From Okamejei kenojei (lineage: Eukaryota), in contig CM069134.1 of the NCBI GenBank assembly GCA_035221665.1, positions 94,178,001 to 94,242,000 on the forward strand: a stretch of 64,000 bases of DNA. The letters run 5' to 3'. Positions within the stretch are counted from its first letter, which is position 1, and each line of letters opens with the position of its first letter. The notes under the pieces were generated by a model that worked only from the letters and a program-made list of their open reading frames with translations, searched no databases and was not told where the DNA came from. Of the stretch, positions 4,101 through 62,350 are shown piece by piece. A program made the translations under genes and the position numbers.

Positions 4101-6576
4101 TATAAAATTACCTCAGTGTAAAGATTTGATGGTATAAACCATACAAAACATCATTTTATATACACTTTCACAGTGTAAGAACATTTATTAAAATGGAAAC
4201 ATCTAGAACATGGAAATACAGTTGCCATTAACAAATTGTTAATCAATATTACAGGTGCTTGAAATTAATTAAAATGGGTCAAGCTGTGCAAGTTTAAAAC
4301 ATTGTCCAAAGGATTAAACCCAGTTCAAGGCTGTTAAACAGAATACTGGAGGAACAATTATGCTGATAAAAGATCAGCACTTGCACTAATGAGGTCATGG
4401 TCATGGGTTATCTTGATTACATTTAAATTGGAAGGTTATAAGAGTCGGCTGCAAATTAGTGCTGCAATTACAAACCTGGTGGTAGGTAAGGACCTGACCC
4501 ATTATATAAAGCGTATGCTTAGGCATTAATAAAATATTCATAAATTACTATTCTGAATTTAGAAGTAATTCAGCACCATAAGAGGGGGAAAATTGTTCCA
4601 TGATACAAATATGTCTCATTGTTGTTGACATACTTTGTCCCTCCATTAGGTTAGGTAAAGGGTAAATAAAGCTCCAAAAGAAGGAATACAGAAGCTTATA
4701 AGAAAATGTATGCCTTTGTGAGAGGCTTATGCAAATATCAAATGATACATTATCATTATTAAAGTAATGTAAAAAAGGTTCACAAGCTGCTTCAACTATA
4801 AGCTTAACAGCTGTTGCAAACTGAAGCATGTGTTACAGATGATGTACAGCTTCTGTGAATGTTTGGGTAAAGATAAGAATATTATCTATTCTTATAAGAA
4901 TAATTGATACGTCTCTTGTTGGGACTGCGGACAATAATACCAGGTGAGCATAAATGGATTGTCCTAAGAAATTTTCCAAACATTTGTATTAATTTTTGAA
5001 GTATAAGGAGTTATGGATTAAAATATCGATTGTTTTATTATGGAAGTGTCCATGTCGTATCAAGGCGAACAATACCACGGCTGTGGCATATGTTAAAACA
5101 CACAAGATAAAATAACAATTATGGGATTATCTGAGTAAACAGATGTGGCATATTCTAAAAAATTTAGTCCAGCTGTTTATCTCTAAGGAAGAGACAATGG
5201 TATCGGAGACAACAAATTTGGGAGGAAAAAACACATTGTCATTAATATGGATTACTTACGATTAATCTGGTTGCATACAGATTAAATCACCGATCTTTCA
5301 AATGTTTCTTGTGGGTAAACCAAGAACAGGAAAGGTGGATGCTTTTCTCTCAATTACATGAGGAAAAGATGTTCTTTTGTGTTCCTCATTTTGTTTGATA
5401 GGGCAGTGTCTGATGAAAATGTAGCAGGACACTGCCAGAGGCATTTTGGTGGCCCAATACGGATCCTTCATGGTTTCATAAATATTGAGTGATGTTGAAC
5501 CACTTGTGATGATTCATAGTTGCAGTAATTTATTGAAGTCTGAGGAAGGGTCTCGACCCGAGGTGTTGCCTATCTCCTTTCGCTCTTCGGATGCTGCTGC
5601 ACCCGCTGGGTTCTCCAGTTTTGTGTAACCCTGCAGTAATTTATTGTTGTACAAAGGCATCCATGACATGAAAATATGAATTTGACTATCTGCAGGTTGA
5701 CCAGACCATTACAACAGCTGATGGTCAAAGAAGTCTATGAATGTTTAACTAATATAACAACATAACAATAAAATAATTATGTATAAAAGAAGTGTTATAC
5801 CTGCAATTTGCAGAAATAAGTTTAAAAAACAATATTTTGTTATAAGAAATTGGAAGTCTGTGTATACAGTAAAGTTATTTTATCATATTAGATATATGGA
5901 GTTCCTTGTGGATTGCATTTTTCTGAGCATCTAATTGATAGAGCCAATAATAGGGCTCGGAGTGTTACCGTCCTATTAACGGACAATATACTAACCAAGA
6001 AGTTATCAGGTGCATTCATAATATCCCGATATGGAAAGGNNNNNNNNNNNNNNNNNNNNNNNNNNNNNNNNNNNNNNNNNNNNNNNNNNNNNNNNNNNNN
6101 NNNNNNNNNNNNNNNNNNNNNNNNNNNNNNNNNNNNNNNNNNNNNNNNNNNNNNNNNNNNNNNNNNNNNNNNNNNNNNNNNNNNNNNNNNNNNNNNNNNN
6201 NNNNNNNNNNNNNNNNNNNNNNNNNNNNNNNNNNNNNNNNNNNNNNNNNNNNNNNNNNNNNNNNNNNNNNNNNNNNNNNNNNNNNNNNNNNNNNNNNNNN
6301 NNNNNNNNNNTATATAAGTCGGGAGATAAATAATCCTGAAATGCCTTAGGCAATGGACTCTTAACTCTATCAATGATTCAAAAAAGTTAGCATTGAAAAT
6401 AATAATGCTGATGACTTTAGTATCAATATAAGAGAGCAAACATTGCAAATGTTACGTTATAATTGCATGTGGATACAGATTGCATTATCATATATGTTTA
6501 TGAATTTACCAAACAAAGCACACCAAGAGGAGCTGAAACCATGGTAAACCTATAAGCATATCCTGTCGGCCTTAAG

Positions 6577-6657
<81 letters not shown>

Positions 6658-9600
6658 CATTGATGAAATATGTTGAAGTAGGTAAGAGTCTCTGTGGTAA
6701 TGAGACAGCACTACTTATTACACACAAAAACCACATTAGGTTCAGTAAAAACTGATGGTTCTAGAGGAATGTATTCTAGATGGTTAGAAATTGGATACAC
6801 TCAGTGGAACTAGACACTGAAAGGTGGAAAATCACTCTGTTAATGAGGTAGATACATTCACAGGAATGGCACGGGATGAGCCGCTCGAGCAAAGATGCAA
6901 GGCCACAGGAGGGTGTAAATTAATGTTAAAGTAAAAAGGAACCAGTCATGGTGTCAGGTTTGGACACGGAGTGTTGGGTTCTCTATAATTGTTGCTTTGT
7001 CATACCATCAAAATATATATATCAATTGATATTTTGTGATAAACTTGCCTTTCAATGGAAAGGGCATTACTTTTATTCTTTATAATGTGAAATAATTTAT
7101 CACATAACTTGAGGCAATGTTTGGGGAAAAATGTGTTATTCGCTCGACACATGTGTTGAATGAGCCGGACTGTCGTATGGAATAAATTCTACGACATGAA
7201 AAACACAGAAAGCTTCAAAATCTTCACGTAGTCACTCACGTGACTCCGAAGTAAAATAGTAAGATTAAACGAGAACTTACCAGTTTTGAAGTTTGATCTT
7301 TATTTTTATGAGGAGTAACGATGAGGGATTACGTGCCCTCCACTCCCCACCCTCATAAAATAAATGATCATCTGGTAGTTCTAAATCTATGAGAAGCCTT
7401 ACTATCTTACTCAGGCTATTATGTTCTGTGTTTTTCATGCCGCTGCTTTGAAGTATGCCGTTCCAGCGCCAGGCGGGGTTCTTCACGTAATCCCTCGTCG
7501 TTACTCCTCATAAAATAAAGATCAAACTTCAAACTGGTAAGTTCTCGTTTAATCTTACTATTATCAAGTGTTAAAGCATCATCCAAATATGGAAACAAAA
7601 TTAGTTTTAAACCACTGTAAAACACATCACTTGCGTAGGACGGAACTGCAGATGCTGGTTTAAACTGAAGATAGACACAAAATGCTGGAGTAACACAGCG
7701 GGACAGGCAGCATCTCTGGAGAGAAGGAATGCCTGTCCCGCTGAGTTACTCCAGCATTTTGTGTTTACCTTCCATCACTTCCTGTTTAATCTCAAACCAC
7801 CAATTTCATATATTCTCAAGTAGCTTGACTCTTGTTGAATTGCTCAATTTGCCTTGATTTATGTAATGGCCTTGTTCAAAAGGAGGCCCACAACTTATCT
7901 TCTAAAAAAGTTCATTTTATTTCTGTTTGTTTTCATCTTATTGGTTTTGTTTTCAAGTTTACACCAGATTCCAGGTCCTCAAGAAAGGAATACTGGATAT
8001 ACGGAACTCTTCACATTTGAACTAATTTTCCAAAACAGAACCACAAATCTTACCCGTTGTACACCCGTCAAGTCCTTCTTCATTCCTGTTACTGTTTGGT
8101 ACAGAATCTAAGCAAAGCCACAAATCAGACTGGTTGAAATATGTTATTTTATAACATGCAAAAATTACTATTCAATGGCATATTTAGAAAAGGCAGAAAT
8201 ATTTTTGCTGCTGTATGTTATAAACATTTTCATTGTTAAGTATCTCAAAGACTAGATTCACTCGATATGCATTAAATAATTTATAATGAATGCATTTGGT
8301 TCTTTTATTTCCCCCCTCAGGTAGTCCTTGGGGTCAAGGACGACTTGCTTCTATTCCAGTTCTGTGGGCATCAAGGTGTCAAATGAGCCCCATGCACCTT
8401 CTAGGAGGAATAGTTGGGGCAGGTAGGTGGGTAGTTGGATTGTGTGCTCTTTTAGTTCATTCCACATAGCCTCTGGACTCATTTGTAGAGACAGTAGTTT
8501 TGCATTGTCTTCCCAATATCTGCTTCTCCATTTTGAATCTTTGGGAGTGAGGAATTCGTATTGGTCAGAAGGATGTGAATTTTTATACAGAAAGGCTTGG
8601 AGAATAAACTTAAATCCTTCCTTTGTGCTCATGGGAAAACATTTAATGTGACTGATATCAGAGTTGAGTGCTTGTTTTGGAAATCTGATAGTCAGGCATG
8701 CAGATGATGTAGCCTGCTAACTACAGAGTCTTGAGGCAGGGATATTGCCCCAAAAGAGGACATTGCGATTACTTCATCTCTCTTAACAATGGATTTTATG
8801 GATATTGTGGAGGCAGAGATGTACCTCTCCAGCTCTCCGAAGTATCCATTATAGGCTGTTGATGCCTCTGAAACAAACAGTCGAGTAAAACATCAGTGCT
8901 GCTCAGTAGACTGTGAGCTTTGCACTGATGTTCATGAGAGAGGTGGCTCACACAATATGGGAAAATAAATGAAAGGGGTTCTAGGTAAGGTACATGTTAG
9001 TTGCTTCAAGCTTGAATAATTAACGCTGATTAGAAAATGAACGAAATTCATTTTCTAAATAATTTATTTGTTAACCCATGAAATGAATGTATTAAAACTG
9101 GCAACAGTGATAAATTATATTTAAATTATACCAGAAATTAAATAAAGACTGGGTTATGCTGATAGGATTGAAGGAGAAATGTAAAGGAGGACAATCAGTA
9201 AAATTAAATGCATTGTTTATATTACAAAGTTTATTTTCCTTTGAAGGAATGTTAACATTTTTTTGCAGTTAATTGTACTTGGTCTGAAAGTTGCTCAATT
9301 GAATTATTGCTCATTATACTGTTAATCACTCATATTTGCATAAACTAAACCTAACATTTGCATCTGTCTTTAGCATTAAACGTGGATAAATTTGTACCAT
9401 TGAAGTGATTACAAAGCCAGATTTGTTGGTGAAATCTGCAACTATCACCATTGTGAAGCAGCCTGAGTTCGTGACAGCAACTTATGGTTTTCTGCCTTTT
9501 GGGGTCAATTGTCATATGTACCAGAAATGAATTAAAGCAATTCTTACTTGCTGCAGCTTTACAAGCCTATTAGATCAATAGCACACAGATATACAATGAT

Positions 9601-12600
9601 CAACAATATATAAATAAATAATCAGCCAGTAATACCAGTTAACCAGATAACTATTTACAGAATTGTGTATAACCAAAATACATTGTGTAACCTAAAACAA
9701 AGTCTACAGTATATTGTTGCAGAGGTAGGTTTGTTATTAGTGTTGTGCAATGTGGTTCAAGTGCTTAATAGTTTCTGGAAAGAAGCCATTTTGAATCTGG
9801 AGGTTAGAGTTCTAAGACTCCTGTACCTTCTTCCTGATGGTTGTAATGAAATGAAAACGAGACCAGGGTGACGTGGGTCATTAATTATATTGACTGTCTT
9901 TTTGAGACAGCATCTCCAATAGATCCCTGTGATGGTGGAGGCGGGTGGGGGAGGGGAAATATTCATGATGGGTCAAGCAAGGTCAACAACTCGGCAGCCT
10001 CCTTTCTTGGGCATTCGAGTTACCGAGCCAGGCCGTGATACAATGAGTATGATCTCTACTACTGCACAACTGTACAGGTTCAATAGAGTATTCGGTGACA
10101 TATCGGATCTCCTCAATCTTCGAAGAAAGTTGCTTTGTTGCATCGTGCTAAGGAGATCATTTATGATATGCATGCCCAGGAACGTGAAGCTATTGACTCT
10201 TTTTAGAGATGCAGATACCAGAAGACCTATAACGGTGGTGACTTCTAATTGCTTTGTTATTTTTAATATCAAAATAAAGTTTAATGTATTGGTATTCACA
10301 GCTAAGCAAAGTGTCAGCGTTCAGCTGAATTATAATTTTTAACTGAAAGAATTGCTGCTTTGGGGAAGATACTTGCAGAATTATTAAAAATTATTGGACA
10401 GATTTTCAGAAATTCTATAAAATGAGGCAAATGTCTTGCTGGAGATTATCCTTTACATAAGCAGAACAAAAAACAATATCTTCATACAATAGATTTTATT
10501 TTTCTAATGCAGATCACAAAGACGACCACTTACATTGTCATGCTGTCTATCTAAAATATTCTCCTCCTTAAACTTTGTCATGATATCAACATCTCGTTCA
10601 TAATCTTTCACTTCATTTAGCGTCCTGGGAATGTAGGCCCTTTTGAACACCTACAGAGAGAAAAACAAATGAAACCAACAATCATTTTTTCCTCACCTTC
10701 CACATCAGCCGTCACTTATAACATATAATCCCATCTCCTCCCTCTTCTGCTCTCCGCAGAGATTGTTTCTTCCGTAACTCCCTTGTCAATTTGTCCCTTC
10801 CCATCCCCTCCCCTTGTACTTTCCCTTACAACCACAGGAAATGCTACACTTGTCGCTTTATCTCCCCTCTCGACCCCATCCAAGGACCCAAGGAGTCTTT
10901 ACAGGTGAGGCAGAGATTCACCTGCACCTCCTCCAACCTCATCTATTGCATCCGCTGTTCCAGGTGTCAACTGCTCTAACCAACCTGATCTCCCAGTGGC
11001 TCAGCACTTCAACTCTCCCTCCCATTCTGAATCCGACCTTTTTGTCCTGGGCCTCCTCCATGGCCAGAGTGAGTCCCACCGCAAATTGGAGGAACAGCAC
11101 CTCATATTTCGCTTGGGTAGTTTATACCCCAGTGGTATGAACATTGACCTCTCCAATTTCAGGTAGTCCTTAGACCCGAAACGTCGCCTATTCCTTCACT
11201 CCACAGATGCTGCCTCCCCTTTCTCCAGCTTTTTTGTCTACCTTCAACTTTTATATATAACCAGTAACACTGAACAGCACACTAATAAGTATAACATAAA
11301 TATACAGAAGTAGATAATATGCTCAAGGCAAAACTCCAACAGTAATACATCTGGAGAGCTTAGGAATGTGAAAATTCAATCAATTTCCCCGACAAGATAC
11401 ACACCTCTTCATCTACTTTGCCTTGGTTCGATTGTTCCTCCTCTGTTCTATTTGCAGATAATTCCATTGCCTAATAACATACGTAAAGCATCAGTTCTGT
11501 TAGACACACAACAAGCAATTTCCTTCATTGCATATTTGTTTATGATGATAAATGATTATTTCGCAATACTCTTGTTCATTAAAGTTATTTGTAACGAAGG
11601 AGATTTCACACCAATTATCGAAAAGCTGAACACTTTTAATCAATCGTACTTCTTTGGAAAGAGTCACAAGTCATTATAAATATTCCAAGAGCCACAAGGC
11701 TAAAAAATGCATTGACCAGAAAAGATAGTATTAAGAAAGAAGTGCAAATATAAAGACCTTAGGATTCACGTAGAAACCAAATTGATAAATAAATGGCTTT
11801 ATAACACGAGGCATGTAATACAAAGATACTATCCTGAAAGTCTTTAATATATCATAGATTAAACACTTTGGTTATCAATATATAATTAAACCAATGATTT
11901 CAATTCCGGGAATGGCATGATACAAAAGACCCGTGAGAATTTTAAAGAGCCAGAGAAAATGTATTTGAATGATCCTAGGCACAAACAAATTTCAGATATT
12001 TATGAAGATATTAGTAAAATACTGTTGGCAAAGTTAACCCATAATGGGACTATTCAAAAAGATGAGGAGTTTTGATAGAATAGGTCAGGAAAATCCAAAA
12101 CTCCTCATCTTTTTGAATAGCCCCATTATGGGTTAACTTTGCCCTCCATAATGGATGAAGGGTTCATGTCTTAATAACTTAACATTAGAAGTGCAAGAAC
12201 TAAAAACAAATTCCTCGATATAAAGCAGGTCAGACAGGTTCTGTTGAGAAATAGCAGTCACAGGTATTAGATCAAATATCTTTCATCAGAACTGGCAAGT
12301 GAGAAAACAAGTTAGTTTTTAGCTCAGAGGGGCACGGAAGAATGGATAAAACTAATGGTATATCTCTGTAATAGCGTAGTGCGTGTTGCAAAGGTGATTC
12401 CACCGTTTACAGCCATCTGTTTGATAAATTAATGAGAGCAGTTAGAGAAAGAGAAAACAAAGGACATGTAAAAGTTGTGAAATGCTCATCTGAGCTGTTG
12501 CTAAAAGACAAAACCAAATGTAAATGCCAAGCAGATCAGACAGTGATGTAATATTGCAGATGGATATATTTTACATCAGAACTGGTCAACTCAGACACAA

Positions 12601-15600
12601 CAAAAAAAGGTATCTGAAGTTGTTGAATTCAAGATGATGCAAGATGATGTTCTGTTCCTTGAGTTTACATTGCATTTCATTCAAACAGCACAGAAGGCCA
12701 TTGACATATAGATCAAAATGAGAGCGATGTGGAAAATTAGAGAGAGATAGCTGGTTGTCTTGCAGACTGAATGCAGGTGCTCTGATCAGCAGTCAGACAA
12801 TCTGCGTTTAAAGAAACGATTTTGCTACAATCGGAACTATGGATTTTAGCACATTAAAAAAAATATTCTGGATATAGTTTCCCAAACATTCTCACTCCTT
12901 TCATACCAATAACCATTTAAAAAATGTCCTAAATTCTTTATGATATAGTGGGGCATTTTGGCCATCAATGCAAGAAAAGACTGGATTTAATATCTTTCTC
13001 TTACATACATGACAATGGAAAAGGTGAAAATATCCATTATTAGACCACTTCGAAAAATGCTTGCACTTTATTTAAAATAGAGATGCGCCTTCATCTGTGT
13101 TGTTCAGTTAAAAACATCCAATTGCAAGCCTGTTTGAAAATTAAGGTTGAAATTTAAGATAATCTATTAAAAGACACAACATTAATGGATAAATAAATGT
13201 ATTATGAGGACTCATGATCTAGTGTAGCCATCGGGTGGAGTGTACTGGGGATTATTGGAACAGAATAGACATAAATTAAGACACAATTCTAAGAGACAAA
13301 CATTGTTTTATATTTATTACACGTTTTTATAATGTTATAATCAAACAGCAAAATGCAGAGATTCAGAAAGTTGCGTTGCTAAGAGTACAATAATTTTGTA
13401 CGGGCTAATACTGCGAGCTGAAGGTGGATAGTACAGCTCATTTCAAAAGGTTATTTATTGGTCACATACACCAATTGGTGTAGTGAAATGCTCCAACAGA
13501 AGTGTGCAGGTGTAATTACAGTACGACAAACTTATGCTTGCAATTTGTATTTTCAGTATCTATAGGAATGTAATATGAGAAAAAAATCAAAATGTGCAGC
13601 ATTTTTGTAGCATATGAACAAGTCATCTTGGTCAGGTAATGTAATAATTTATTCCAAGCAGTGAATGAAAAATCACATCAAATTACTACTTGCTGATTGG
13701 AGCTACCATACAAATTAACCGTATAATATCAGAGAGGTGGGATATAGATGGTCCCCAGATTATGACAGGGTTACGTTCCTGAGAATTGTCCATAAGTAAG
13801 AAATGAACAAAAATATTGCGAGGTAGAAGCTCACAGAAACAGCCTTGATGGGAGAGTGAGCAGGTATGGGGAAGAGCAACCATCAGCCAGCCTCACTGAC
13901 ACGGTGAGTCTGCTCAGAGCTCCCAGCTCTGCTTGGTGCAACCCAGCTCCCAATTATTGTAGCTGAGGTGGAGATAAAGAAAAGCCATGCGAAAAAGCCC
14001 CGCTCCCACTGGCAGACGATGCCTGCCTGTAACTTTGCAGGAGCCAGCAAATCAATTCCACCAGTCTTCCAAACACTCATATATTTGGGGTGTCCATAAG
14101 TCAACTGTTCATTTGCAGGGGAGGACATGTACACTATTTTATTGCAAGGCCACCACTGATTAAACCTAACCATTACATAATTAAAAATCAATATCTTTCT
14201 GCAAATTGCTGCTTTAAGAAAACTAGAATTTTATTTCAGGAATGTACTGTAAAGTCTTACCTTTTCTAGGTAAGCATCAAGGTTATCTTCTGCAATTGAA
14301 GGATCTGTGACAAATTCAAAGAGCTCTCGAACAGTCATCACAGCAACGTCGTGTTTACGGAAAAATTCTACCACAAAAATATAGCGTCAGTTTGTGATTT
14401 AAATCAAAATAATGGAAATAATGCAAACATTCTCTTAACCTTATGCAATTAGAAAGTCAAGCATGTAATTTTCAGAAATTTACAAACGTAGATGCATATG
14501 AAATTGCATGTGTTCATTCTGTGCAGCTCTGGCAATAAGTTGGAAACTCATCCATAACAGTAATAATATATTAAAAACTATCAGATAAGAAATTACCAAA
14601 CAGTAAAAATTTGAAGATAAGTGTTCACTGAATACGTATGAAATATATAAATCTTACTTTTTTTCCTAATTGCCCAAAAGTAAGACTGAAATGAATTAAA
14701 GAATATGCCAAATTATAGCCTAGAAGAACAAGTAAAAATACCAATAATGAAATAATAATGAGCAGCCATGCATACAAAGAGACCATCCTGGCTATGAACA
14801 AATAAAAACACTAATTTATTAAATAGTCCACTTAAATTGATTATTTTGAAAGAAACTATTCCACCCTAATGCCATTCCATACATAATCCTCAGAAAACGT
14901 AATTTTCCACATTAAACCACCGAATATGAGATTAAGAATGTACCAGAGACAATATGTTTAATTTTATAGATATTGTTAAAAACAAGATTAATAATTTAGC
15001 ATCCTGGACATGGCATTATGTATCAATTTTCGTATCGAGGTTCCGCAGGTTAGATCGCATGGGATTCATGGAGAGATAGCTGAATGGATAGCAAATTGGC
15101 TTCATGGAAGGAAGCAGAGAGTGATGGTGGAAGGTTGCTTCTCGGACTGGAGGCGTTTGACTAGTGGTGTGCCTCAGGGTTCGGTGCTGGGCCTGTTACT
15201 GTTTGTCATCGACATCAATGATTTGGATGAGAACATACAGGGCAAGATTAGCACGTTTGCTGATGATACAAAAGTGGATGGTTTTGCAGATAGTGCAGAT
15301 AGTTGTGAAAGACTGCAGAAGGATCTGGATCGATTGGCCAGATGGGCTGAGGAATGGTTGATGGAATTTAATATAGAGAAGTGTGAGGTATTGCATTTTG
15401 GGACGTCTAACAAGGGCAGGACCTACATAGTGAATGGTAGGCCTCTGGGGAGTGTTGTAGAGCAGAGGGATCTCGGAGTGCGGGTGCATGGTTCCTTGAA
15501 GGTCGAGTCGCAGGAAGATAAGGTGGTCAAAAAGGCTTTTGGCACATTGCCCTTCATCAGTCAGAATATTGAGTATAGAAGTTGGGAGGTAAAGTTGTAG

Positions 15601-18600
15601 TTGTATAAGACGTTGATGAGACCGCATGTAGAATATTGTGTTCAGTTCTGGGCACCATGTTATAGGAAAGATATTGTCAAGCATGAAAGGGTTCAGCAAA
15701 GATTTACGAGGATGTTGCCAGGACTAGAGGGTGTGAGCTTTAGGGAGCTTGAGTAAACTGGGTCTCTATTCCTTGGGGCGCATGAGGATGAGGGGTGATC
15801 TTATAGAGGTGTATAAAATCATGAAAGGAATAGATAGGGTAGATGCACAGTCTCTTGCCCAGAGTAGGGGAATCGAGGACCAGAGGAAATAAGTTCAAAG
15901 TGAAGGGTAAAAGATTTAATTGGAATCTGAGGGGTAACTTTTTCACACAAAAGGTGGTGGGCGTATGGAACAAGCTGCCAGAGGATGTAGTTGAGGCTGG
16001 GACTATCCCAATGTTTAAGAAACAGTTAGATAGGTACATGGATAGGACAGATTTTGTGGGATATGGACCAAGTGCAGGCAGGTGGGACTAGTGTAGCTGG
16101 GACATGTTGGCTAGTAAGGGCAAGTTGGGCCAAAGGGCCTGTTTCCACACTATCATCTATGATTCTATCTATGGGGCCAACCTGTCCATTCAATGAAGTC
16201 TCGAGGAGATTAACATAGCATCTTTCTGCATATTCAATACTTAAGATTAAATTTAACAGAGTTATTATATAACAATTAATCATAGTCTCCAACAAATCCA
16301 AAAAAAAATCTGAACAGGAACAAATATATTTATGGTTTTGACCCACCATTAATATTGAGACAGTCTTTTCGGAGAAACTCCAAAGCACATGGATGATCGT
16401 GTTCCACTGACTGGGATACATCAATTATATAAATTCCCCCATCGTGGTACCTACGTAATGACAAAAACAATATATACATAAATTACCTAGTTGCTCATTC
16501 GTGAATAGATAGGAAAGGTTTGAAAGGATATGGGCCAGATACAGGCAGGTAGAACTAGCTAGGTTGAGCTACTTGGTTGGCAAAGCCAAATTGGGCCAAA
16601 GGGCTCGTTTACATGTTGAATCGCTTAATGACTATGAATTCCATTAAGTAAAAAAGCCTGGGCAATAAAATTAAATTTTAAAAACATATTTTCAAATGAA
16701 AGTCAAAGGACAAACACAATTCAAAAATTAATTTCCCATTTTCAACAATATTAGGTAAATGTGCACTTTAATATAATCATTTCAAACAAATAACAAAATA
16801 TAGAAATAATTATAATTATTAATTGCTTGATAATGTGAAATCCATGGCCTACCAACTTTTAGGAATTGTGTACAGTTTAAGTTTCCTTATTGTAAATAGC
16901 TATAGAGGTTCTGGTGAAAGTAAACAAAAGATTTAACAATAATACTAGCAATGAATTACTGTAATTTCATGGAAAACTGAAGAGGTCGAATCATTTCAGT
17001 AAAGATAAAGGTTGAGGAAAGATCTGATGAAGGTTTTTAAGGAATATGAGAAATAACATAGGGTAGATGTTTTTCTTACATAACTGAGTGGGTTAAACTC
17101 GAAAACCAGGAGTCATAATTAAGATAGTAACCAACAAATACTCTTTTCTGAAAAAATGTTATCATCCATATAATGGTTAGAACTTTGTTGGATACAGTAT
17201 GCAAGGCAAACAGCAATGACACGGGAAAAGGAAAGCCTGGTTGAAAAAAGAAAAGAGTATGCAGTAAAAAAAAATAGATAAACATGGATGCAACTAAGGA
17301 AAGTTGCATCTATTATTAAGGAACTGGTAAAGGGGCAATAAGAAAATAACTGAATTGGGCAGAATCAACATGGTTTATGAAAGAGCATATTTGACAAACC
17401 TTTTGTAACATTTTGAACGTACTTAGCAGAATAGATAAACATGAACCAGTCAATGTGAATTTGAGCTTTCAAAATAATTTTTAGGAAGATACCAGTCTAG
17501 ATATTATTAAACAAAATTCGAGGGCATGGTATTGAGGATAACACGCTGGTATGAATTGGCAGAAAATAGTCAGAACAAATGGCTTATTTTTGAGTAGAGT
17601 TCAAAGGGTTTGTTGGATTTATTGCAAGAGGATTTGAATAGAAAAGTAGAGACAAGTGATTCAAATTACACAAATCCTGGTGGCTACACCTGGGGTGCAG
17701 TACAGGTTTGATCTCTCAACCCAAGGAAAATCATACTTCAGGGTTTACGAGATTGGTTCCAGGGATGATGGGTTTGTCATGTGATGACAGGTTTAGTAGG
17801 GCTCAAGTTTAGGAGAGTGAATTCATTGATTTCACCTCATCTTCCAGTGTTCTAGAGAAAACAATCCAAGTTTGCCCAACCTCTCCTTGTGGCTAATACC
17901 ACCTAATCCAGACAGCATTCTGATAAATCTTATCAGTCTGAAGGAGGGTTTTGAACCAAAATGTCACCAATTCCGTCTCTCCAGAGATACTGTCTGTCCC
18001 GCTGAGTTACTCCAGCATTTTGTGTCTACCTAGCATTCTGATAAACCTCTTCTGCACCCTCTTCAAAGTCTTCTTGTAATGAGCCAACAACTGCACAAAG
18101 TATTCCAAATGCAGCCTCATCAAACTCTTATAGAGCTGCATCATCAATGATCTGACCAATGGCCATCATACCATACAACTTCAAAACTTCATACGAACAA
18201 CAAAAGGTCTGATGAATAAATTCAATGTAAATCCTAAATACAGATAAGAGTCAGACAGAAAATATTAGAAAAATAACTCACAACAGATTAAATTCACTGA
18301 GATCAGCATGAACCAGCCTGGCGTCCTTGTACATTCTTCGCATATATTGAATTAGAAGAAAATAAAGTTCCCTGGACTTGGATTCAGACAAATGAGCATT
18401 CTTCAACAGTGGTGCTGGCCTAGAGAGTAAAAGATGATAAATAAGTACGACTTTTTGATAAAGATAAATTACAAGTTTTTTGTAAATCAGCATCTGCAGT
18501 TTCTTGTTTCTACGATAAATTAGTATTTGTTAATTCCTTTATATTGAAATAGATATAACAGATGTTTACAACACAAATGAAGCTGTGAAAATACAGAACT

Positions 18601-46834: not shown

Positions 46835-46841
46835 CGCCAAC

Positions 46842-46972
46842 CGCCGACCCTCAACCCTGTTAAAGAAGGGGGTGCACAAAATGCCGGAGAAACTCAGCGC
46901 CGACCCTCAACCCTGTTAAAGAAGGGGGTGCACAAAATGCCGGAGAAACTCAGCGCCGACCCTCAACCCTGT
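46842..46972. repeat. 56-bp tandem repeat (2.3 copies) in the RIOK1 5' UTR region
   Basis: Unit cgccgaccctcaaccctgt-taaagaagggggtgcacaaaatgccggagaaactcag starts at 46842 and 46898, partial copy at 46954. Confidence 0.95.
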
Positions 46973-47129
46973 CCCGTGCTCGGCAACGGCAACGGCAGCC
47001 GCGCCGCTCACCAACACCACCGGCCAAACGCGTTTTCGAAATGGATCAGACACTTCCCTTGCCGAGATAGTTACAAACACAGATCAGAGAGCGGATGATC
47101 TTTGGTTACAAAGCACAAGAAAAAAAAAC

Positions 47130-47258
47130 ACGTGGAGGAAGGAACTGCAGATGCCGGTTTACACCGAAGATTGACACACAAAATGCTGGTATAACACAGC
47201 GGGACCGGCAGCATCTCGAGAAAGAAATGGGTAACATTTCGGGTCGAGACACTCCTCG
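47130..47258 (-). mobile_element. Penelope-derived short repeat (further pieces at 47955-48015 and 48672-48840)
   Basis: Same family motifs. Confidence 0.75.
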
Positions 47259-48219
47259 ATAGAAAATAAACTTTGATTTCCCACCAGAGATAACAAGTAG
47301 ATCACCTTGTAGCAAATACTATCCACAAAAATAAGTGCTGCGAAGCAGGATGCATTTATTGCCGGTTTAGAAAAGATAAAATCTCAATTTCAAGTAAAAA
47401 TAAAAATAATCAAAAATTACTTCTCACGGAAAATGTGTAAATTGAAATTTCTATATTTCCGCATGGATCCACGAATTCGACTCACTTTTAATTTCAAATT
47501 ACACAAAAACCTCGCGAGGCCCAAGAGTTTGCAGTCGCCGGAATCTCAAGCAACAGCTCAGAGTGGATACAGTTAAATGATATTAGTGAAAATGATTATT
47601 TTATGTATGTCTTTCGTGAGTTGTGAACCTTCAAAAGGAGTGAAGGACAATGTTATCCATCTCCGACAGTGTCATTTGTCTCATGATTGCATCGATTGCC
47701 TCACACTTTCTAACAGATACAACTGATGAAGCTAAATTGGCAAATATATGAAACGATATTTAGTTTAGTTTAGTTTATTGCCACTTGTACCGATGTACAG
47801 TGAAAAGCTTTTGTTGCGTGCTAACCAGTTAGCGGAAAGACAATACATGATTACAATCATGGTGTACAGATACATTAGGGAATAACGTTTTTGTGCAAGA
47901 TAAAGCCAGCAAAGTCCGATCCGATAATCCGAAGGTCTCCAATGAGGGAGATTGGACACCAGCATTTTGTGCCTATCTTCGGAGTAAACCAGCATCTGCA
48001 GTTCCTTCCTACACATTTCGTCTGCTTTCTCGCTGTGGTAGGATGGCTCAGTATATAACAGCTGTGAAGAAACTATTCCTGAATCTGGGAATGTATATTA
48101 AACTACGAAATGTCATATTAAACTAGAAGTATGAAAAATAAAAATAAAGTATTCCTCCCTTGCTTGTCCAATAAACTCCCCTTTGCCATGTTTTTGAGAA
48201 GCTAATGAATCTTGAAGTG

Positions 48220-48480: not shown

Positions 48481-48485
48481 GTCTC

Positions 48486-48526
48486 ATGGAATCCACTGAC
48501 AGAGAAACGGAGAACGGTTATAAGTG
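48486..48526 (+). CDS. Divergent gene exon 1, coding part
   Basis: ATGG with an upstream in-frame TGA, donor gtgagc, phase 2. Confidence 0.5.
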
Positions 48527-51500
48527 GTGAGCATTTCAATGCTAAGTAAATACATCCTATGCATACTGTCGACCTACACTGCCATGCTTTATCCCCTATC
48601 CTTCGTCTGCCTTCATTCTCTCTATATGCAGCGCTCCTTAGGCAAAATAGAGTTGTTTTTGAATCATAAAAGGAAACAAATTGCTGGAGTAACTCAGCGC
48701 ATCTGGAGAACATGGATAAGTGAAGAAGGGTCCCGACCCAAAACGTCACCTATCCATGCTCTCCAGAGATGCTGCCTGACCGGGTGAGTTACTCCAACAC
48801 TTTCTGCCCTATTGTGTACATTTGTATCTGCAGTTTTTTCTACTTTTAAATAATAATTTTAAAAAAAGGGGACAAATGAATATGAAAGCTGACTCTGAAA
48901 GCTTATTTAGATATGTAAAAAGGAAGAGTAATAATGTAGGTCCTGTACAATCAGAGACAGGTGAGTTTATAATGGGAAACAAATAAATGGCAGACCAGTT
49001 AAATGAGTACTTTGTTTGTTTCTTCCTCACTGAAGACAGAACCAATCTTCCAGAAAGGACTGGAAGGGCCGAGAGGGCCTGTTTCCGTGCTGTAGGATCT
49101 AGTGGGAGGGAGAAACTGAAGGGAATCCACATTAGTCTGGGAAATGGTGTTAGGTAAACTGTTGGGACAGAAGGCAGATAAATCCCCAGGGTCTGATGGC
49201 CTGCATCCCATAGTACTCAAAGAGGTGGCCCTAGGAAATTGTGGATGCATTGGTGATCATTTTCAATATTCTTTCTACTCTGGATCAGTTCATGTGGACT
49301 GGAGTGTAGCTAATGCAGCTCCACTTTTTAAGAAAGGAGGGAGAGAGAAAAACGGGGAATTATAGACCAGTTAGCCTTACATCGGTAGTGGGGAAGATGC
49401 TTGAGTTGAATATTAAAGATGTAAATAGCAGCGGATTTGGAAAATAGTTACAGGATTAGTGAAAGTCAGCATGGATTTATGAATGAGAAATCATGCTAAT
49501 CTTCTGGAATTTTTTGAGGATGTAACAAGTAGAATGGAATAAGGGAGAGCCAGTGGAAGTGGTGTATCTGAAATTTCAAAAAGCCTTTGACAAAGTCTCA
49601 CTGGATTTGTGTGCAAAATTAAAGCACATGGTATTAGGTGTAGGGTATTGATATGAATAGAGAACTGGTTGGCAGATAGGAAGCAAAGAGTAAGAATTAA
49701 TGGGTCCTTTTCAGAATGGCAGATGGTGACTAGAGGAGTGCCACAAGGCTCGGTGCTGGGACCCCAGTTATTAACAATATATATTAACAATTTAGATGAG
49801 GGAATTACAAAGACAAAGACAAAGGACAAAGGAAATTGTTACATACACCAATTGGTGTAGTGAAATTTGTCTTGCCATGCAGCACACAGATAAAGATAAG
49901 GCACAACATTAAAGAATTTAACAGTAAACATAAAAAACATCCCCCCACAATGGTTCCCATTATGAGGGAAGGCACAAAGTCCAGTCCCCATCCCCTTGTC
50001 CACCCATAATCGGGCCTATTGAGGACTCCGGCAGTCGCCGCTACGGGGGCCGATGTTACAGGCCCTTCTTCACTGGGTGATGGTGCTCCGGGGTCGGGAA
50101 AACCCTCTCAGCGGCTCGGGGTTGCCTATAATGGCCGCTTCCTTGCTGGAGACCGTGACTTCCAACGCCAACAGGCCGCGCTGAGAGCTCCACAACTGGC
50201 GATCTTGCCGAGAGATCCCAGGCCCCGACGTTAAAGTTGAAGTTCAGCGCCGCCGCCCGCCCACAGTCCGGCAGCTCCGCGAAGTTCACCTGCGGTCTTC
50301 TGCTCACGACCCAGGCAAGGCATCGCCCGCTCCGCTCTGCGATGGTCCTCCCAGGAAACGCCGCTCCATGCCCACTGGTAGGCCGCAAGGACGGGTCGAC
50401 GGTGCAGCCCGGAGAAAGCAGCCTCTCTGACCAGGTAGAAACATAGAACATAGAAATTAGGTGCAGGAGTAGGCCATTCGGCCCATCAAGCCTGCACCGC
50501 CATTCAATATGATCATGGCTGATCATCCAACTCAGTATCCCGTACCTGCCTTCTCTCCATACCCTCTGATCCCCTTAGACACAAGGGCCACATCTAACTC
50601 CCTCTTAAATATAGCCAATGAACTGGCCTCAACTACCCTCTGTGGCAGAGAGTTCCAGAGACTCACCACGCTCTGTGTGCCAAAAAGTCTTTCTCATCTC
50701 GGTCTTAAAGGATTTCCCCCTTATCCTTAAGCTGTGACTCCTTGTCCTGGACTTCCCCAACATCGGGAACAATCTTCCTGCATCTAGCCTGTCCAACCCC
50801 TTAAAATTTTGTAAGTTTCTATAAGATCCCCTCTCAATCTCCTAAATTCTAGAGAGTATAAACCGAGTTTATCCAGTCTGTCTTCATAAGACAGTCCTGA
50901 CATCCCAGGAATCAGTCTGGTGAATCTTCTCTGCACTCCCTCTATGGCAATAATGTCCTTATGGCAATAATGTAGGGACCCTAGAAAGCAGTCCCCCTCC
51001 CCCCCCCCCACCCCCACATAAAAAAGGCTAGGACTCCGAAAACAAAAACTCAACTAACTAAAAATTAAAAAAAAAGAGAAAAAACGGACAGCTGCAAGGC
51101 TGGGCAGCCATTATCCGTACAGGACGGCACCCCGGTTTTAAATGTGACATCTCCAAGTTTGCGGATGACATAAAGCTGGGTGGCAGTGTGAGCTGCGAGG
51201 AGGATGCTATGAGGCTGCAGGGTGACTTGGATCAGTTGGGTGAGTTGGCAGATTCATGGCAGATGCAGTATAATGTGGATATGTGTGAGGTTATCCACTT
51301 TGGTGGCAAGAACAGGAAACGGATTATTATCTGGAATAGGTATCAGATTAGGAAAAAGGGGAGGTGCAACAAGGCCTGGGTGTGCTTGTACATCAGTCAC
51401 TGAAAGTAAGCATGCAGGCAGTGAAGAAAGCTTATGGCATGTTGGCCTTCATTGCGAGAGGATTTGAGTTTAGGAGCAAATAGGTCCTACTACAATTGTA

Positions 51501-54500
51501 CAGGGCCTTGGTAAGACTGCACTTTGAGTATTGTGTGCAATTTTGGTCTCCTAAAATTTGAGGAAGGACATTATTGTTCCTGGGGACCATCATCTCCAAG
51601 GACCTTAAATGGGGGGCTACCATCGACTTCACAGTCAAAAATGCACAACAGAGGATATACTTCTTACGGCAGCTGAGGAAGCCCAATCTGCAACAGGCAA
51701 TGATGGTCCAATTCTCTACGGCCATCGAAGAGTCTGTCCTCACTTTTTCCATCATGGTCTGGTTTGGCTCAGCCACCAAGCATGACATCCGGATGGCTGC
51801 AGCGAATCGTCCGATCAGCTGAGAAGGTTATTGGCTGCAACCTTCCCTCCATTGACGAACTGTACACTGCAAGGGCCAGGAAGCGAGCGGGTATGATAAT
51901 CCATCTTAACCTGGCCACAAACTCTTTGAACCACTTCCCTCTGGAAGGCGACTCCGGACTGTCAAAGCTGCCACAGCCAGACATAAAAACAGCTTTTTTC
52001 CATGAGTGGTAGCTGTACTCAATAACCAAAAATCTGTAGCCTCCTTTTACTCTGGTATTTTATTTAATTCACATGTTTAATCAATAACATTTTATTATTA
52101 ATGTTTAATGTTTTATGTGTCATTCCTAACTGTCACTGTATGTCATTGTCACTTGCGGGCGGAGCAACAAGGCAAATTCCTTGTATGTGAATACTTGGCC
52201 AATAAACATATTAATTCATTAATTCATTGCTGTTGAGTGCAGCGTAGGTTCACCAGGTTAATTCCCAGGATGGCGGGACCGACATGATGAAAGAATGGGT
52301 CCTCAGGGCTTGTATTCACTGGAATTTAGGATGAGAGGAGATCTTATAGAAACATATAAAATTCTTAAAGGTTTGGACAGGCTAGATGCAGGAAAAATGT
52401 TCCCGGTGTTGGGGGAGTCCAGAACCAGGGATCACAGTTTAAGAATAAAGGGTAGACCATTTAGGACTGAGATGATGAAACATGTTTTCACCCAGAGAGT
52501 TGTGAATCTGTGGAATTCTCTGCCACAGAAGACAGTGGAGGCCAATTCACTGAATATTTTCTGGAGAGAGTTAGATTTAGCTCTTGGGGCTAAAGAAATC
52601 GGGAGATATGGGGGAAGAAGTAGGAACGGGGTACTGATTTTAGATGATCAGCAATTATCACATTAAATGGCGGTGCTGGCTTGAATGGCCTACACTCGCA
52701 CCTATTTTCTATGTTTCTATAATTGGATGCCAGATTTGCACACAACAGCATCTCACAAACAGCAAATGAGTTATAGAGCGTTGGTTGACAAGTAACTTTC
52801 ATCAGGCCAAATTTTCCAATCCCTTTCAAATTGGATGCTATTTTATGGTGGATTTATAAATGAGGCCAGAGTTTAAAAATTCTCATCAAAGTGGTCCGAT
52901 CTCTGACAATATAATTTATTGTAATGACAATATAATGACACTGATCTGTCAGCCATAATTGTGTTCAGGAAATATGAATCGGGGCTCACAATATTTTGAC
53001 TCAAAAACAGAACATCTGACTAAGATTAATTGGCAAATATATTAACATTATTATATTATAATATAATCTATTTCAAAAATTAATGCTGTCTTTGGTTAAA
53101 GCACAAGTATTAAAATACAGTTTAAGTCTTCCTTACTTGTTCACTTTTCATTCGAGTACTTCCTCTTGCTTCAAGAATCACCCCTTCTTGCCAGTGTAAC
53201 CATTTTGAAAAGTGACCATTACTTTTTCAGTGTCAATGAAATGCAGACTGGAGGAACCCACATTAACCTTTTAGAACAAAATAAGCTACGCGAGTTGAAT
53301 ATTGGATTTGCTGAAGGTAAGGCTTCCTTGGGATTCAATTGACCAGGATACAGTCTAGATGCAATAACAATCTCTAAATTGACTTCCATGGTGGGCTTCG
53401 TATTGTTCATGTTTTTTTTCATGTCTTTAAATCTGTAAGAACAAAAGTTTGCAGCAAAATCTAATTTCGGTCAGCATTTAAGAATGAGGAGGAAATTGGA
53501 ATTATTGAACAATTTGATCAGTTTCCTTGTCTAGCTTTCTGATTATTTATGAATGCTACCACAAGGAATTTCTTCACTGAATGTCCATCGGGTGGAGACA
53601 TTTTGCCTGTGGTAAAATACATTTCCAAATTACCTAACTGCTACAACAGATTTGTAGTATGAATTAATATACTGTGTTTGAATCTATGATGCAGAAATGT
53701 AGCATATGTTAGTGCATAATAAGATTATTCCAACAGCCAGAAATTTTGGAAGTATATACAATATTATCCTAATGCTGAAGATAAATTCTAATCAGAGCCT
53801 ACATTGTATTGTTGCTGTGAGTTTTGGGATGGATGGACTCCCGATCAAGTTTCATTTGATCTCCTTCTCATTGTTCAATCTTATATAATACACCATAATC
53901 AGGGCTCAAAATTAACAGTTGCCCGGTTGCCAATGGCCACCTAAAGTCCCGCCGGGCAACCTAAAAGCCGTGTCATTTTGCCCGGCTTGATACTGCAGAT
54001 ACTGGTTTATACCGAAGATAGACACAAAAAATTGGTATGACTCAGCAGGTCAGGCACCTACTCCTTATCACGCACCCCGCCTGCCCTCATAGCGGCCGCT
54101 GCGTGCCACTCCGCCAACGGCGATAACCGCTTTCAAAACAAACTCTCCCGCATGCCGAGGCCGGGAAGAGGGAGGGAGGGAGGGAGGAAGGGGGAGGCCC
54201 CCTTCCGCCGTATGAAGCACCTGCACCGCTCGGCCCGCACCTTCCTGTTGGCTGGTGGAGGAGGGGAGGCTGTGGCGAGGAGATCCCAACTGTCTCCCCC
54301 TTTGGCGGCAGCACTTGGCGGTGGACAGGGATGACCAAGGCAGCCGGGCGATGATGCCGGTGTTGTCTGGGGCACACTGACCTTCCTTCCTTCCCACCGC
54401 CTCTGCCCCTTCCCCTCTCTCTTGTACGCCCCCCTCCACCCCCCTTATCCTGAGACCCCTCCTCTCCATCCCGCACTGATCTCCATTCCCGCCTCTATTG

Positions 54501-57500
54501 TCCTCACTGGCATCCCCTATGCTCCCCTCCCCATCTATCTCCCCCCCCTCCTCATCTGTTCATCCTGCACTGATCTCCCTAACCACCTCACATTGGTTCT
54601 CCTGCCACCCCCATCCATCCTACACTGGCCCCCCCAATTCATCCTGTACTGACCCCCCCCATCCATGCTGTAGTGAACTCCCCATTCATCCTGTACTGAT
54701 CCCCCCCCCCATTAATCCTGTACTGATCCCCCCCATTAATCCTGTACTGATCCCCCCCCCATTAATCCTGTACTGATCCCCCCCCATTAATCCTGTACTG
54801 ATCCCCCCCATTAATCCTGTACTGATCCCCCCCCCATTAATCCTGTACTGACCCCCCTTCCCATTCATCCTGCACTGATTTCCCCCTTTCATCCTGCACT
54901 GATCCCCCCATCCATCCTGCACTGAACCCCCTCATCCATCCTGTACTGATCCCCCCCATTCATCCTGTACTGATCTCCCCCAATTCATCCTGTTCTGACC
55001 CCCCCCATTAATCCTGTACTGATCACCCCCTTCATCCATCCTGTACTGATCACCCCCTTTATCCATCCTGCACTGATCCCCCTCATCCATCCTGCACTGA
55101 TCCCCCTCATCCATCCTGTAGTGAACCCCCTATTCATCCTGTAGTGAAGCCACCCATTCATCCTGCACAGACCCACCCTGGTCCACGCTGTACTGATCCC
55201 CCCCATTCATCCTGTACTGACCCCCCCCCCATCCATCCTGCACTGAACCCCCCCCCCCATACCCCCATTCAACCCCACTGACATCCTCCGAGCTCTTCCC
55301 TCACAATTTTACCTACTCCAGCCAATGGATTAATTAAATTGTGAATACATGAAACGTTAAAACCGCTGTGCTTGATTGTCATTGCTACCGTTGACACGTT
55401 ATTACAGAATTCATTTTAACGGCAAATCTATGCTCTTAATATGTAGTATCAGTATTGTTATTTAATGAGCAACATTCACAACCATATGTTGGAGTTATCC
55501 AGGTTTTACTTCTACAGTCGGTCATATACATCATAAATTTGGTCAGGAGATATTTCAGTTGAAATGTTGACGCTAATTCTGAAGTGGGAATGATGGAATC
55601 AGCGTTTATCAATAATTTTTTTTAAATCTGGTGCGTACAAACTGGGTATCTTCATTGCTGTTCACACCAAATACATCAAATCTGAATGACCGGTAATGTG
55701 GCGTTTTGACACCTTTAAACATATTGCCAAAAGAATATTTGCTGCAGTTATGTCATTTGGCCATCTCTTGTCAGTTAGTGTAATGTTTAACTTGTCAGAT
55801 GGGTATAGTCGGTCCTTCACCAAAAACATGCTTGCATCAATCTGTAATGTGCATTGTAAGCATTTATGTTACCATGGTCCAGGATTTTTTGACACAGGTT
55901 GATCATACGCTGAATAATCCAACTGCATTTTTGTTTGGAAGTGAAAAGAAATAATAGAAATTGCATTCATTGCAAGGTGTAAAAGGATACTGTATTATAA
56001 TGTTGCTGCTTGTCATTGTGGTATATATCATGTCTTGATTGGTGAATATATTTTGATGGTGACTTTATTTGAAGCAGAAATAATATGTGGCTGCTTCATT
56101 GAGCGTAATTCCAACTGGTAACTACGCACTTCGTCCGAGCACATTATCGCACGAGTCATGCAAGCCGTCTTAAATGACCACCTAAACTGTCATTTGGCAA
56201 CCTAAAAAGCTGCCTAGGTTGCCCGGCTGGCAACAAAGAAAAAAGTTAAGTGAGAGACCTGATAATGAAAATCTTCTCTATTTCCCTTTGCATATCGAAC
56301 ATAAAACACAACAAATAGCACAAGAACGTTCCCTTTGACCCACAATGTTTGTGCCAGACATGATCTCTTCTCTCTGTACATGAACAAAATCCCTCCATTC
56401 TCTGCATTTTCATGTGGCTGTCAAAAAATCTCATAATGCCACTACCATATCTGCCTCCACAACCAACCCTGGAAATGCATTCCAGGCCCCACTGCCCTCT
56501 GTGTAAAAGGAACGTGTCCCGAACGTCTCCATTAAACTTTTCCCCTCTCACCTTATTGCTATTTCCTGTAGTGTTGGACATTTCTATCCTGGGGAAAAAA
56601 GGTTGTGACTGTCTACCCTATCTATGCCTCTCGTCATTTTATATACTTCTATCAATCACCCCCTAACCTCCGACGATCCAGAGAAAACAATCCAAGTCTA
56701 TCCAACCTCTCCCTATAGTGGAAACCGTCTAGTCCAGACAGCATTCTAGTAAACCTCCTCTGCACCCTCTCCAAAGCTTCCCCATCTTATTGAACAATTT
56801 CTTTTCTTCGGTATTCACCAAGGAGAAGGATATTGAACTCGGTGAGTTAAGGGGAAAAAGTAGAGTAGCTATGGAAACTATGAGATTCAAAGAGGAGGAA
56901 GTACTGACACTTTTGAAAAATATAAAAGTGGATAAGTCTCCAGGTCCTGACAGGATATTCCCTAGGACATTGAGGGAAGTTAGTGTAGAAATAGCAGGAG
57001 CTATGACAGAAATATTTCAAATGTCATTAGAAACGGGAATAGTGCCGGAGGATTGGCGTACTGCACATGTTGTTCCATTGTTTAAAAAGGGTTCAAAGAA
57101 TAAACCTAGCAATTATAGACCTATTAGTTTGACGTCAGTGGTGGGCAAATTAATGGAAAGGATACTTAGAGATAATATATATAAGCATCTGGATAAACGG
57201 GGTCTGATCAGGAACAGTCAACATGGATTTGTGCCTGGAATATTACAGGGTATGACTTTCCACAAATGGTTAGATATGTTACCCGTGGAAATAGCAGCAG
57301 TTGAAGGCTTCTGTGCCAGAACGTCACTGTGCCATTTAGTAAGATTTCTCCATCAATTCTACTTTCTTACCAAGTCTCGATATCTTCTGATACCATAATG
57401 CCCAATGTCCATTATTCAAAACCATATAGATGTGTCTGTACATTCACAGCCTGAGACAGTTCCAGAGATTCATAAACATCCAAGTAAAGAGGTTTCTACT

Positions 57501-60665: not shown

Positions 60666-60889
60666 GTAAGTTTACTGATCCAATGACAGTTTCCCAGTAT
60701 GAGAAAGCACTCCTTTTTCATGAAATGTAATACATCTGCATAGCTGACTTCTTAGCATGTATAGAACTGGAATTTGTAGGTCCTGGGGTTTGATCCCTGG
60801 TGTATTAACCTGGCTCCACAAAACAGTACAGCATAGGAACAGGTCCACATTGTTTGTGCTGAACATGGTGCCAAGTTAAACTGATCTCA

Positions 60890-61533
60890 GATGAGCCAAA
60901 ATTCCAGAATAATTCAGCAGGACAGGCATCATCTCTAGAGAGAGGGAATGGATGGCATTTTGGGTCGAGACCCTTCTTCAGACTGAGTCAGGGGAGAGGG
61001 AGACTAGAGATATGGAAGGGTAAGATGTGAAAATGACATATTAAAGCTGACGATGATCAAGGAAATGTAGAATGAGTCATTGTTAGCTGTGGGGAAGATG
61101 ACAACGAGGCATACAATCAGTAAAATTAATCAGGAGAACAGTGAACGAGTTGGAGAACTAGGATGGGAGAGGGGCAGAGAGAGAGGGAAAGCAGGGGTTT
61201 CTTGAAGTTAGAGAAATCAATATTCATACTGCTGGATTATAAGCCCAAGCAAAATATCAGGTGCTGTTCCTCCAATTTGCATTGGGCCTCACTGACATGG
61301 TGGAGGCCTAGGACAGACATGGCAGTATGGCAGTGGGAGGGGGAGCTAAAGCGTTTAGCAACCGGGAGATTGCCAAGGCCTAGGCGAACTGAGAGGAGGT
61401 GTTCAGCAAAATGATCGCTGAGCCTGCGCTTGGTCTCGCCGATATATAGGAGTCCACACCCAGATACAGAAGATGTGGTTGGAGGATGTGCATGTGAACA
61501 TCTGCCTCACCTGGAAAGGATTGTCGGGTTCCC
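60890..61533 (-). mobile_element. Penelope-like element 3' part (GIY-YIG plus hammerhead-type repeat), 11-bp TSD
   Basis: [38 protein letters not shown] aactgatctca at 60879-60889 and 61534-61544. Confidence 0.88.
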
Positions 61534-62350
61534 AACTGATCTCATCTGCCTGTATATGATCCATATCCATCTATTCCCTGTTACATCCTTATTGCCTATG
61601 TAAAATCCTCTTAAACACCACTATCATTTCTGCCTCCCCCACCATCTCTGGGAATGTGTTCCAGGCACCCACTACTCTCTGCGTAAAATAAAACTTGCCC
61701 TACAAATCTCCATTAAACTTCCCCCCTCCCCCTCACCTTAAAGCTATGCCCTCTAGTGTTGGAAATTTCCACCCTGGAAAAATGGTTCTGACAGCTACCC
61801 TATCTATGCCTCTTATTTTATATACTTCTATCGTCACCCCTCAACCTCCGACATTCCAGAGAAATCAATCCAAGTCTATCCAACTCCCTGTAGCTGAATC
61901 TAATCCAGGCAGCATTCTGGTGCACCTTCTCTGCACCCTCTCCAAAGTCTCCACATCTTTCTTGTATTGGGGCGACCAGAACTGCTTGCTGTACTCTAAA
62001 TGTGGCCTGACTATAGACCTACAGAGCTGCATCATGGCTTCCTGGCTCTTGTATTCAATCACCTCGCAATGAAGGCAAGTACACCATACACTTCTTTACC
62101 ACCCTATCTACTTGTGCTGTCACCTTCAATGGAACTTGGACTCCAAGGTACCTCTGCACATCATTGCTGTTAAGGGTTTTGCCATTAACTCTACATTCTC
62201 CCCTTACATTCAACCTCCCAACATGCAACACACTTGCTTAAGTTAAACTCCATCTGCCATTTCTCCACCTATTTTTGCAGCTGATCAATATCCCGCTATA
62301 TCTTCTGACTGCATTACAACTCCTCCGATTTTGGTGTCGTCAGCAAACAT
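61534..62350 (-). mobile_element. CR1 3' fragment (its tail lies at 60828-60889)
   Basis: FADDTKIGG, RPHLEY..QFWSP, LERVQRR. Confidence 0.85.

Follow-up and report, generated by a model that had tools for sequence, protein, structure and literature searches.

Short repeats with a predicted hammerhead motif in Okamejei kenojei are end modules of a coding Penelope-like element

A 64,000-nt stretch of the Okamejei kenojei genome (contig CM069134.1, positions 94,178,001 to 94,242,000; hereafter the window) contains short inserts with a hammerhead ribozyme motif, which raises the question whether these form a retroelement of their own or are parts of a larger one. All eight inserts named in the initial annotation were present at their positions, and a profile search identified 16 pLTR arms in the window. 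The duplications of 8–15 bp assigned to five short inserts proved exact in each case and the long copy at 60890 is flanked by an 11-bp duplication, whereas duplications of at least 7 bp were sought at 1367, 47130, 48672, 53985, 47956 and 10690 and not found. The copies are the following (duplication starts in brackets).

1367–1500, minus strand: tailed pLTR stub; damaged core, duplication not found.
5521–5646, plus strand: pLTR stub (5536–5631) of subfamily F3 without tail, GAAA box damaged; 15-bp duplications at 5521–5535 and 5632–5646.
7625–7780, no single strand: head-to-head fold-back of a tailed minus arm and a short plus arm; 8-bp duplication (7625, 7773), no hammerhead core.
10690–11250, plus strand: 5'-truncated Penelope-like copy with a GIY-YIG remnant at 10722–11160; UTR and first core half deleted, pLTR from +16.
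17914–18045, plus strand: pLTR stub (17928–18031) of subfamily F1 without tail, core damaged; 14-bp duplication (17914, 18032).
18782–19022, no single strand: head-to-head pair; 12-bp duplication (18782, 19011); minus arm with intact core (CTGA at 18887), plus arm from +11, tailed.
20834–20979, plus strand: old, diverged pLTR arm lacking a core; flanked by a possible 11-bp duplication (one mismatch).
29816–29936, plus strand: untailed pLTR stub (29827–29925) of subfamily F2 with intact boxes and a damaged stem II; 11-bp duplication (29816, 29926).
47130–47256, minus strand: tailed pLTR stub that has lost the first box; no clear duplication.
47956–48015, plus strand: pLTR 3' fragment with tail.
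48660–48840, no single strand: old head-to-head pair with a damaged core; duplication not found.
53992–54063, minus strand: pLTR 3' fragment with part of the tail.
60879–61544, minus strand: 5'-truncated Penelope-like copy with GIY-YIG remnant, UTR of about 230 nt and pLTR; core at 60981 damaged, 11-bp duplication.

The plus-strand inserts at 5536, 17928 and 29827 had been described as starting within about 10 nt of the core, and CTGA indeed lies 4, 10 and 6 nt downstream of their starts. The view that the inserts are built around a hammerhead core holds only in part: a core is present in many of them, but the insert at 7633 has none and the copy at 10690–11245 has lost the first core half together with the UTR. 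Only one of nine window cores inspected is intact, that of the arm at 18887. The stub at 5536–5631 sits within a longer dispersed host repeat. Among paralogous sites of this repeat, three are empty and contain the target once, and two others are filled with this insert. The comparison of empty and filled sites fixes the ends of this insert directly, with one extra A before AGTCTGA on the 5' side and the 3' end at +92. The dispersed repeat itself, about 5 kb long and located at 2238–7565 of the window, recurs in four of the eight unselected blocks of 50 kb and at a further locus (L100), some of its copies with and some without the insert.

The short repeats are the 90–130 nt end module, a pLTR with an optional tail, of a coding Penelope-like element. 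In coding copies the GIY-YIG stop is followed by a pyrimidine-rich UTR of about 95–250 nt and then by the core/pLTR module. The two GIY-YIG remnants of the window, both of which had been noted to precede the repeat, align to the intact family frame (aa 1026–1196 and 1084–1196). The Penelope origin suggested previously is thereby supported, the repeat being the pLTR of coding copies. One locus (L141) comprises a full unit of pLTR, ORF and second pLTR that is flanked by an 11-bp duplication and broken by another repeat, and partial-tandem pLTRs occur at this locus and at 27 of 35 full-length 5' ends. Three of six long loci fetched have open frames, of 1197, 1197 and 1190 aa, in which the DKG, YIDD, CX4CxxC linker and GIY-YIG motifs were read directly; Pfam matches of the 1197-aa frame to RVT_1 (E 5e-6) and GIY-YIG (E 0.004) were both below the curated cut-offs. 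This frame includes CX2-5CxxC between RT and endonuclease as well as CCHH, a layout given in PMC8557442 as defining the Neptune/Nematis type, and by this layout the coding element would be placed as an EN+ Penelope-like element with Neptune/Nematis-type motifs. Elements of this type, as described in PMC8557442 and PMC3846280, possess a pLTR, a one-sided tail of 30–40 bp and an inverted 5'-truncated copy. The present element shares with these descriptions the RT with DKG, the CX2-5CxxC linker, the C-terminal GIY-YIG, partial tandems, head-to-head inversions, a tail at one end and the range of duplications, which is 8–17 bp there; it differs from them in that most insertions consist of the pLTR only and have 5' ends clustered at the front of the core. 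At the other side, module 3' ends peak at model positions 93–94 and 123–125, corresponding to about +93 and +125 when counted from the C of CUGA, and the optional tail of 30–35 nt lies between these two ends.

Young F1–F3 arms in 862 kb of unselected sequence (n=97) revealed where copying ends. Among the 68 arms reaching +10, 47 stop between +10 and −8, with the mode at −3 (10/47), compared to 1.2 expected from the upstream end rate. This hotspot is a smear about 18 nt wide and, since the end rate between +11 and +60 is itself raised 5–9 times over the upstream rate, exceeds that adjacent zone only about 5–10-fold. At the predicted cleavage site (+29; range +26 to +31) only one of 76 young arms ends. 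Duplication-bounded simple inserts, called with a false-call rate of 37/1178 as determined with swapped flanks, start between +9 and −10 in 33 of 71 calls (one minisatellite row was excluded from the 33), ten more start within −22 with filler, and none starts at +26 to +31. The check proposed earlier, comparing 5' ends with the cleavage site, thus had a divided outcome: the ends are non-random and clustered near the core, but they are not at the cut site, which we therefore rejected as the 5' end of the inserts. This implies that cleavage does not set the insert boundaries. In 3/116 cases a longer re-copy of the core was found ahead of the stub, a number within the random range of 0–3.

The same hotspot is found in copies of full length. 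The 48 distinct top-scoring F3 loci comprise 13 that end downstream of the core, 8 that end at the core and 27 that end farther upstream. Of the loci used for the counts, L225/L235 and L229/L231 each entered once and L080 was left out as a duplicate of L079. Accordingly, 8 of 35 full-length F3 copies stop in the hotspot, six of them at +3 to +5, while 27 extend 50 to more than 1300 nt farther upstream, nine of these (loci L201–L250) into a possible second cluster at −400 to −530. The occurrence of the hotspot in full-length copies indicates that this leaky stop belongs to the copying of the coding element, on uncut RNA.

These data bear on the proposal in the initial annotation that the inserts constitute a separate, ribozyme-defined mini-retroelement, i.e. 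a non-autonomous element of retrozyme or SINE type with masters of its own that is mobilised by Penelope enzymes. The high density of the inserts, their own duplications and their sharp 5' boundary would suit such an element, as would the scarcity of coding copies of F4 and F5 in the sample (the incomplete UTR references of F4–F6 lead to an overstated short-copy share in these subfamilies) and the report of vertebrate retrozymes derived from pLTRs (10.64898/2026.07.22.740005). However, the coding copies carry the module, and F1, F2 and F3 each contain both coding and short copies, the F1–F3 core arms of the unselected sequence being 30 long, 21 inversion-adjacent and 50 simple short ones. Junctions were distinct in 309 of 325 cases, and those shared had either common outer flanks or were microhomology joints or UTR ends with unrelated flanks. 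Mixed subfamilies and almost exclusively distinct junctions imply that stubs are made anew, with no master stub. Neither private sequence nor a shared leader was found upstream of the stubs, where composition is at background by −7, which leaves no shared head or 5' junction of the kind that a SINE-like element with its own master would have. Moreover, head-to-tail arrays with the core are absent from the window, close pairs are head-to-head, and a 54-bp minisatellite related to the pLTR lacks the core. Metazoan non-LTR retrozymes, as presented in PMC7229834 and 10.64898/2026.07.22.740005, resemble the stubs in being short, non-coding, pLTR-related and equipped with a type I hammerhead, but they are arranged as head-to-tail repeats, each unit with its own ribozyme, and give rise to circular RNA, in contrast to the dispersed single or head-to-head stubs found here, for which there is no master. 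Together with the avoidance of the cut site and the hotspot in coding copies, this largely refutes a distinct mini-element for F1–F3, and we regard it as improbable. In annotation, the repeats are best entered as Penelope stubs and not as a new ribozyme element.

The boundary could alternatively be a splice acceptor, so that stubs would derive from spliced or splicing-intermediate RNA. The core is preceded by a pyrimidine tract and CAG (CAG/TCTGA), a donor-like CAG/GTAGT occurs at the F2 ORF end, and in D. virilis an intron is described to end at helix I (PMC4209133). Against this, clean removal of the UTR was seen in 0 of 90 coding arms, a donor-compatible junction in just one of 237 short arms, where it reads as a UTR variant, and a first exon shared by the stubs was not found. 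We consider this explanation very unlikely and rejected a spliced leader or spliced copies as the source of the stubs. No GT-AG joint was present among the 15 contig joints listed of 249, a comparison confounded by UTR subfamilies. Contigs of four sequencing runs had loose ends at −6 to −3 and at about +93, but contigs cannot show starts and are subject to the same confounding, and neither contig observation counts as evidence here.

If cleavage does not define the ends, what is the role of the hammerhead? The motif was correctly annotated as a minimal hammerhead, with the core boxes, the base before stem II, the G-C first pair and the palindromic 15.2–16.2 all present, and its helix I is as short as had been suspected: it has two pairs only, with A.C at the third position in 172 of 258 cores, and thus falls short of the 4–5 bp of the minimal type I motif. 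A 2-bp helix I has been described for D. virilis (PMC4209133). The metazoan minimal type I hammerheads of that description have in common with the present core CUGANGA, the extra base before stem II, the G-C first pair, GAAA, the palindromic ACGU, the lack of helix III and the occurrence mostly as single motifs of truncated copies; apart from D. virilis they differ from it in a helix I of 4–5 instead of 2 bp, and stem II, 7–8 bp there, is 4–5 bp here with little variation between subfamilies. Concerning the suggested covariation in stem II, 243 scored cores contained no compensatory change (p 0.13–1.0 for an excess), the variation between masters being too small for a clear signal, and the stem change seen was solely one-sided, from U-A to U-G. 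A match to an Rfam hammerhead, likewise suggested as a check, was not obtained: no hammerhead family reached E<=10 when the window and an intact pLTR were scanned. The expected excess conservation of the core was observed relative to the sequence just downstream (28 of 34 columns from −3 to +31 invariant across six subfamily majorities, versus 7 of 17), but it is matched by the next stem-loop (27/35). The fold stability of the pLTR is unremarkable (z −0.52).

Conservation across subfamilies suggests that the hammerhead likely matters to the master elements, which it may serve as a dimer or with the help of a protein, as judged from sequence, whereas in the stubs it is best explained as a passenger. 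The 2-bp helix I, the missing compensatory changes in the little-varying stem II, the lack of an Rfam match and the equally conserved downstream stem-loop argue against ribozyme function. For the PAc element of Anolis, the ribozyme was reported to require protein and to be dispensable for insertion in vitro (PMC11167929).

Altogether, the stubs are very probably terminal-module leftovers of separate abortive insertions, in which uncut RNA was copied back to about 3 nt before the core. Each stub would then represent one such insertion, with its cDNA initiated at one of two internal start sites. By analogy to the Anolis element, the enzyme would nick both target strands and prime one cDNA per strand, one at each start site; a single surviving cDNA would yield a simple stub, and two cDNAs joined by microhomology a fold-back. 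In vitro, uncut RNA was the main substrate of the Anolis element, and its optional tail was tied to two internal RT start sites (PMC11167929). The present element is like this Poseidon element, as characterised there, in that two internal RT start sites bound the tail, uncut RNA is used and RNA ends at the cut site are lacking. It belongs to a different clade, its long frame opens just past the tail and not in stem II, and its one-tail rule and 5' hotspot are genomic counts as opposed to biochemistry.

The least certain step is the boundary itself. Some of the templates may have their 5' end here, with initiator-type transcription beginning at the A of TCAGTCT, in which case the long copies would come from jumps or from longer read-through templates. 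We take TCAGTCT to fit the initiator consensus, and the most frequent arm end falls on its A. CAGT is invariant in the six subfamily majorities although only its GT pairs in helix I, and arms ending at A-3 have a purine before it in 33 of 37 cases (T deficit p=2.5e-4; two duplicates dropped), both of which we count for an RNA start. So do we count the rarity of second-pass stops (8/35 versus 12/24 in the first pass, p=0.049), since a stall of constant probability predicts equal proportions. On the other side stand the 18-nt smear, the upstream extension of 27 of 35 full-length copies, a cap-type extra G that is not significantly enriched (14/37, p=0.06), and the case of D. virilis, in which the RNA is described to start some 120 nt upstream of the point at which the intron ends and helix I begins. 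Within the explanation by abortive insertion, an RNA start at this A is about evenly poised.

The same origin would hold if the hotspot resulted from a structural or protein-bound barrier on longer templates, with RT stalling at the front edge of the ribozyme fold or on reaching the self-complementary UCAGUCUGA. This sequence would also pair two cDNAs head to head, and five inverted pairs from three subfamilies are joined exactly at it. For the −6 to +34 fragment of F1 and F2 the best dimer is predicted to be the palindromic duplex of UCAGUCUGA, with −24.7 (F1) and −20.9 (F2) kcal/mol compared to −14.4 and −10.6 for two monomers. Concordantly, core inversions are few in F3, which has a shorter palindrome (4/63, versus 59/153 in F1). 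The leaky and smeared stop, with most full-length F3 stops at +3 to +5, is consistent with a barrier, and GA precedes AGT in 9 of 37 cases (p=9e-4), a pattern expected from realignment at a boundary. However, F3 simple stubs still halt at the boundary about half the time, first- and second-pass stops are unequal, and the pLTR fold is not unusually stable. We regard a barrier as a tentative though serious explanation: an RNA start is slightly favoured, with a structural stop as its close rival.

The fold-backs provide a second regularity. Close pairs are head-to-head in 90 cases and tail-to-tail in 7, and exactly one arm is tailed in 24 of 26 duplication-bounded head-to-head pairs and in 54 of 65 classifiable close pairs (25 unclassed). 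A one-sided tail is known in Penelope-like elements (PMC8557442), and PAc cuts and extends both target strands and has a predicted dimer (PMC11167929). By this analogy, the near-strict one-tail rule would fit one start site per target strand. Stubs at two loci (L089:5268 and L153:2583) were inserted in the end of a sibling element copy or in a core-like target, in line with self-targeting.

The counts thus indicate that cleavage does not define the insert ends, that each of the two RT start sites serves one arm, and that copying frequently halts at one fixed boundary. Tentatively, this can be extended to a strong-stop-like process, in which the main RNAs would start at −3, a dimeric enzyme would prime one cDNA on each target strand from the two internal sites and most cDNAs would run off after 95–130 nt, long copies and pLTRs arising only via a jump to the 3' pLTR or from a longer template. 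In that case the copies, hundreds of thousands in number, would document how the ends of Penelope-like elements are regenerated; pLTR regeneration in these elements and the role of the hammerhead are treated as open questions in PMC2377424 and PMC11167929. The kind of element, the ribozyme, the tail and the inversion are already in print, whereas neither the 5' hotspot nor the one-tail count was found in the literature searched; the supplements of PMC4209133 and 10.64898/2026.07.22.740005 may list the ribozyme of this family.

Exact matches to the 31-nt core number 13,437 in the 2.76-Gb genome, against none for its reversed control, and the profile search of reversed sequence also gave 0 matches, indicating that the repeats are not due to chance. 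With 240 arms, 153 of them with core, in the 862 kb of unselected sequence, extrapolation would give a genome-wide total of several hundred thousand arms.

Other repeats were observed in or near the window. The 54-bp minisatellite, derived from about +37 to +90 of the pLTR, occurs in numerous short arrays within the first 4 Mb of contig C1 (L071–L089, e.g. L080:660–1310); a peak of profile matches starting at +37 was traced to it and removed before the counts. The window further contains a 56-bp tandem repeat that includes a reversed pLTR piece (46842–46972), a 24–25 bp minisatellite of 26 copies (54608–55254) and a near-perfect, MITE-like hairpin with 41-bp arms (12030–12141), of which no second copy was found in 1.6 Mb searched. 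Broken frames at 22876–25613 and 31174–34114 presumably belong to a Gypsy-type LTR retrotransposon gag-pol, a label based on motifs. Many remnants of one LINE family, which we take to be CR1-like, lie at 14995–15990, 27200–29580, 44600–46600, 49100–52700 and 56700–57400.
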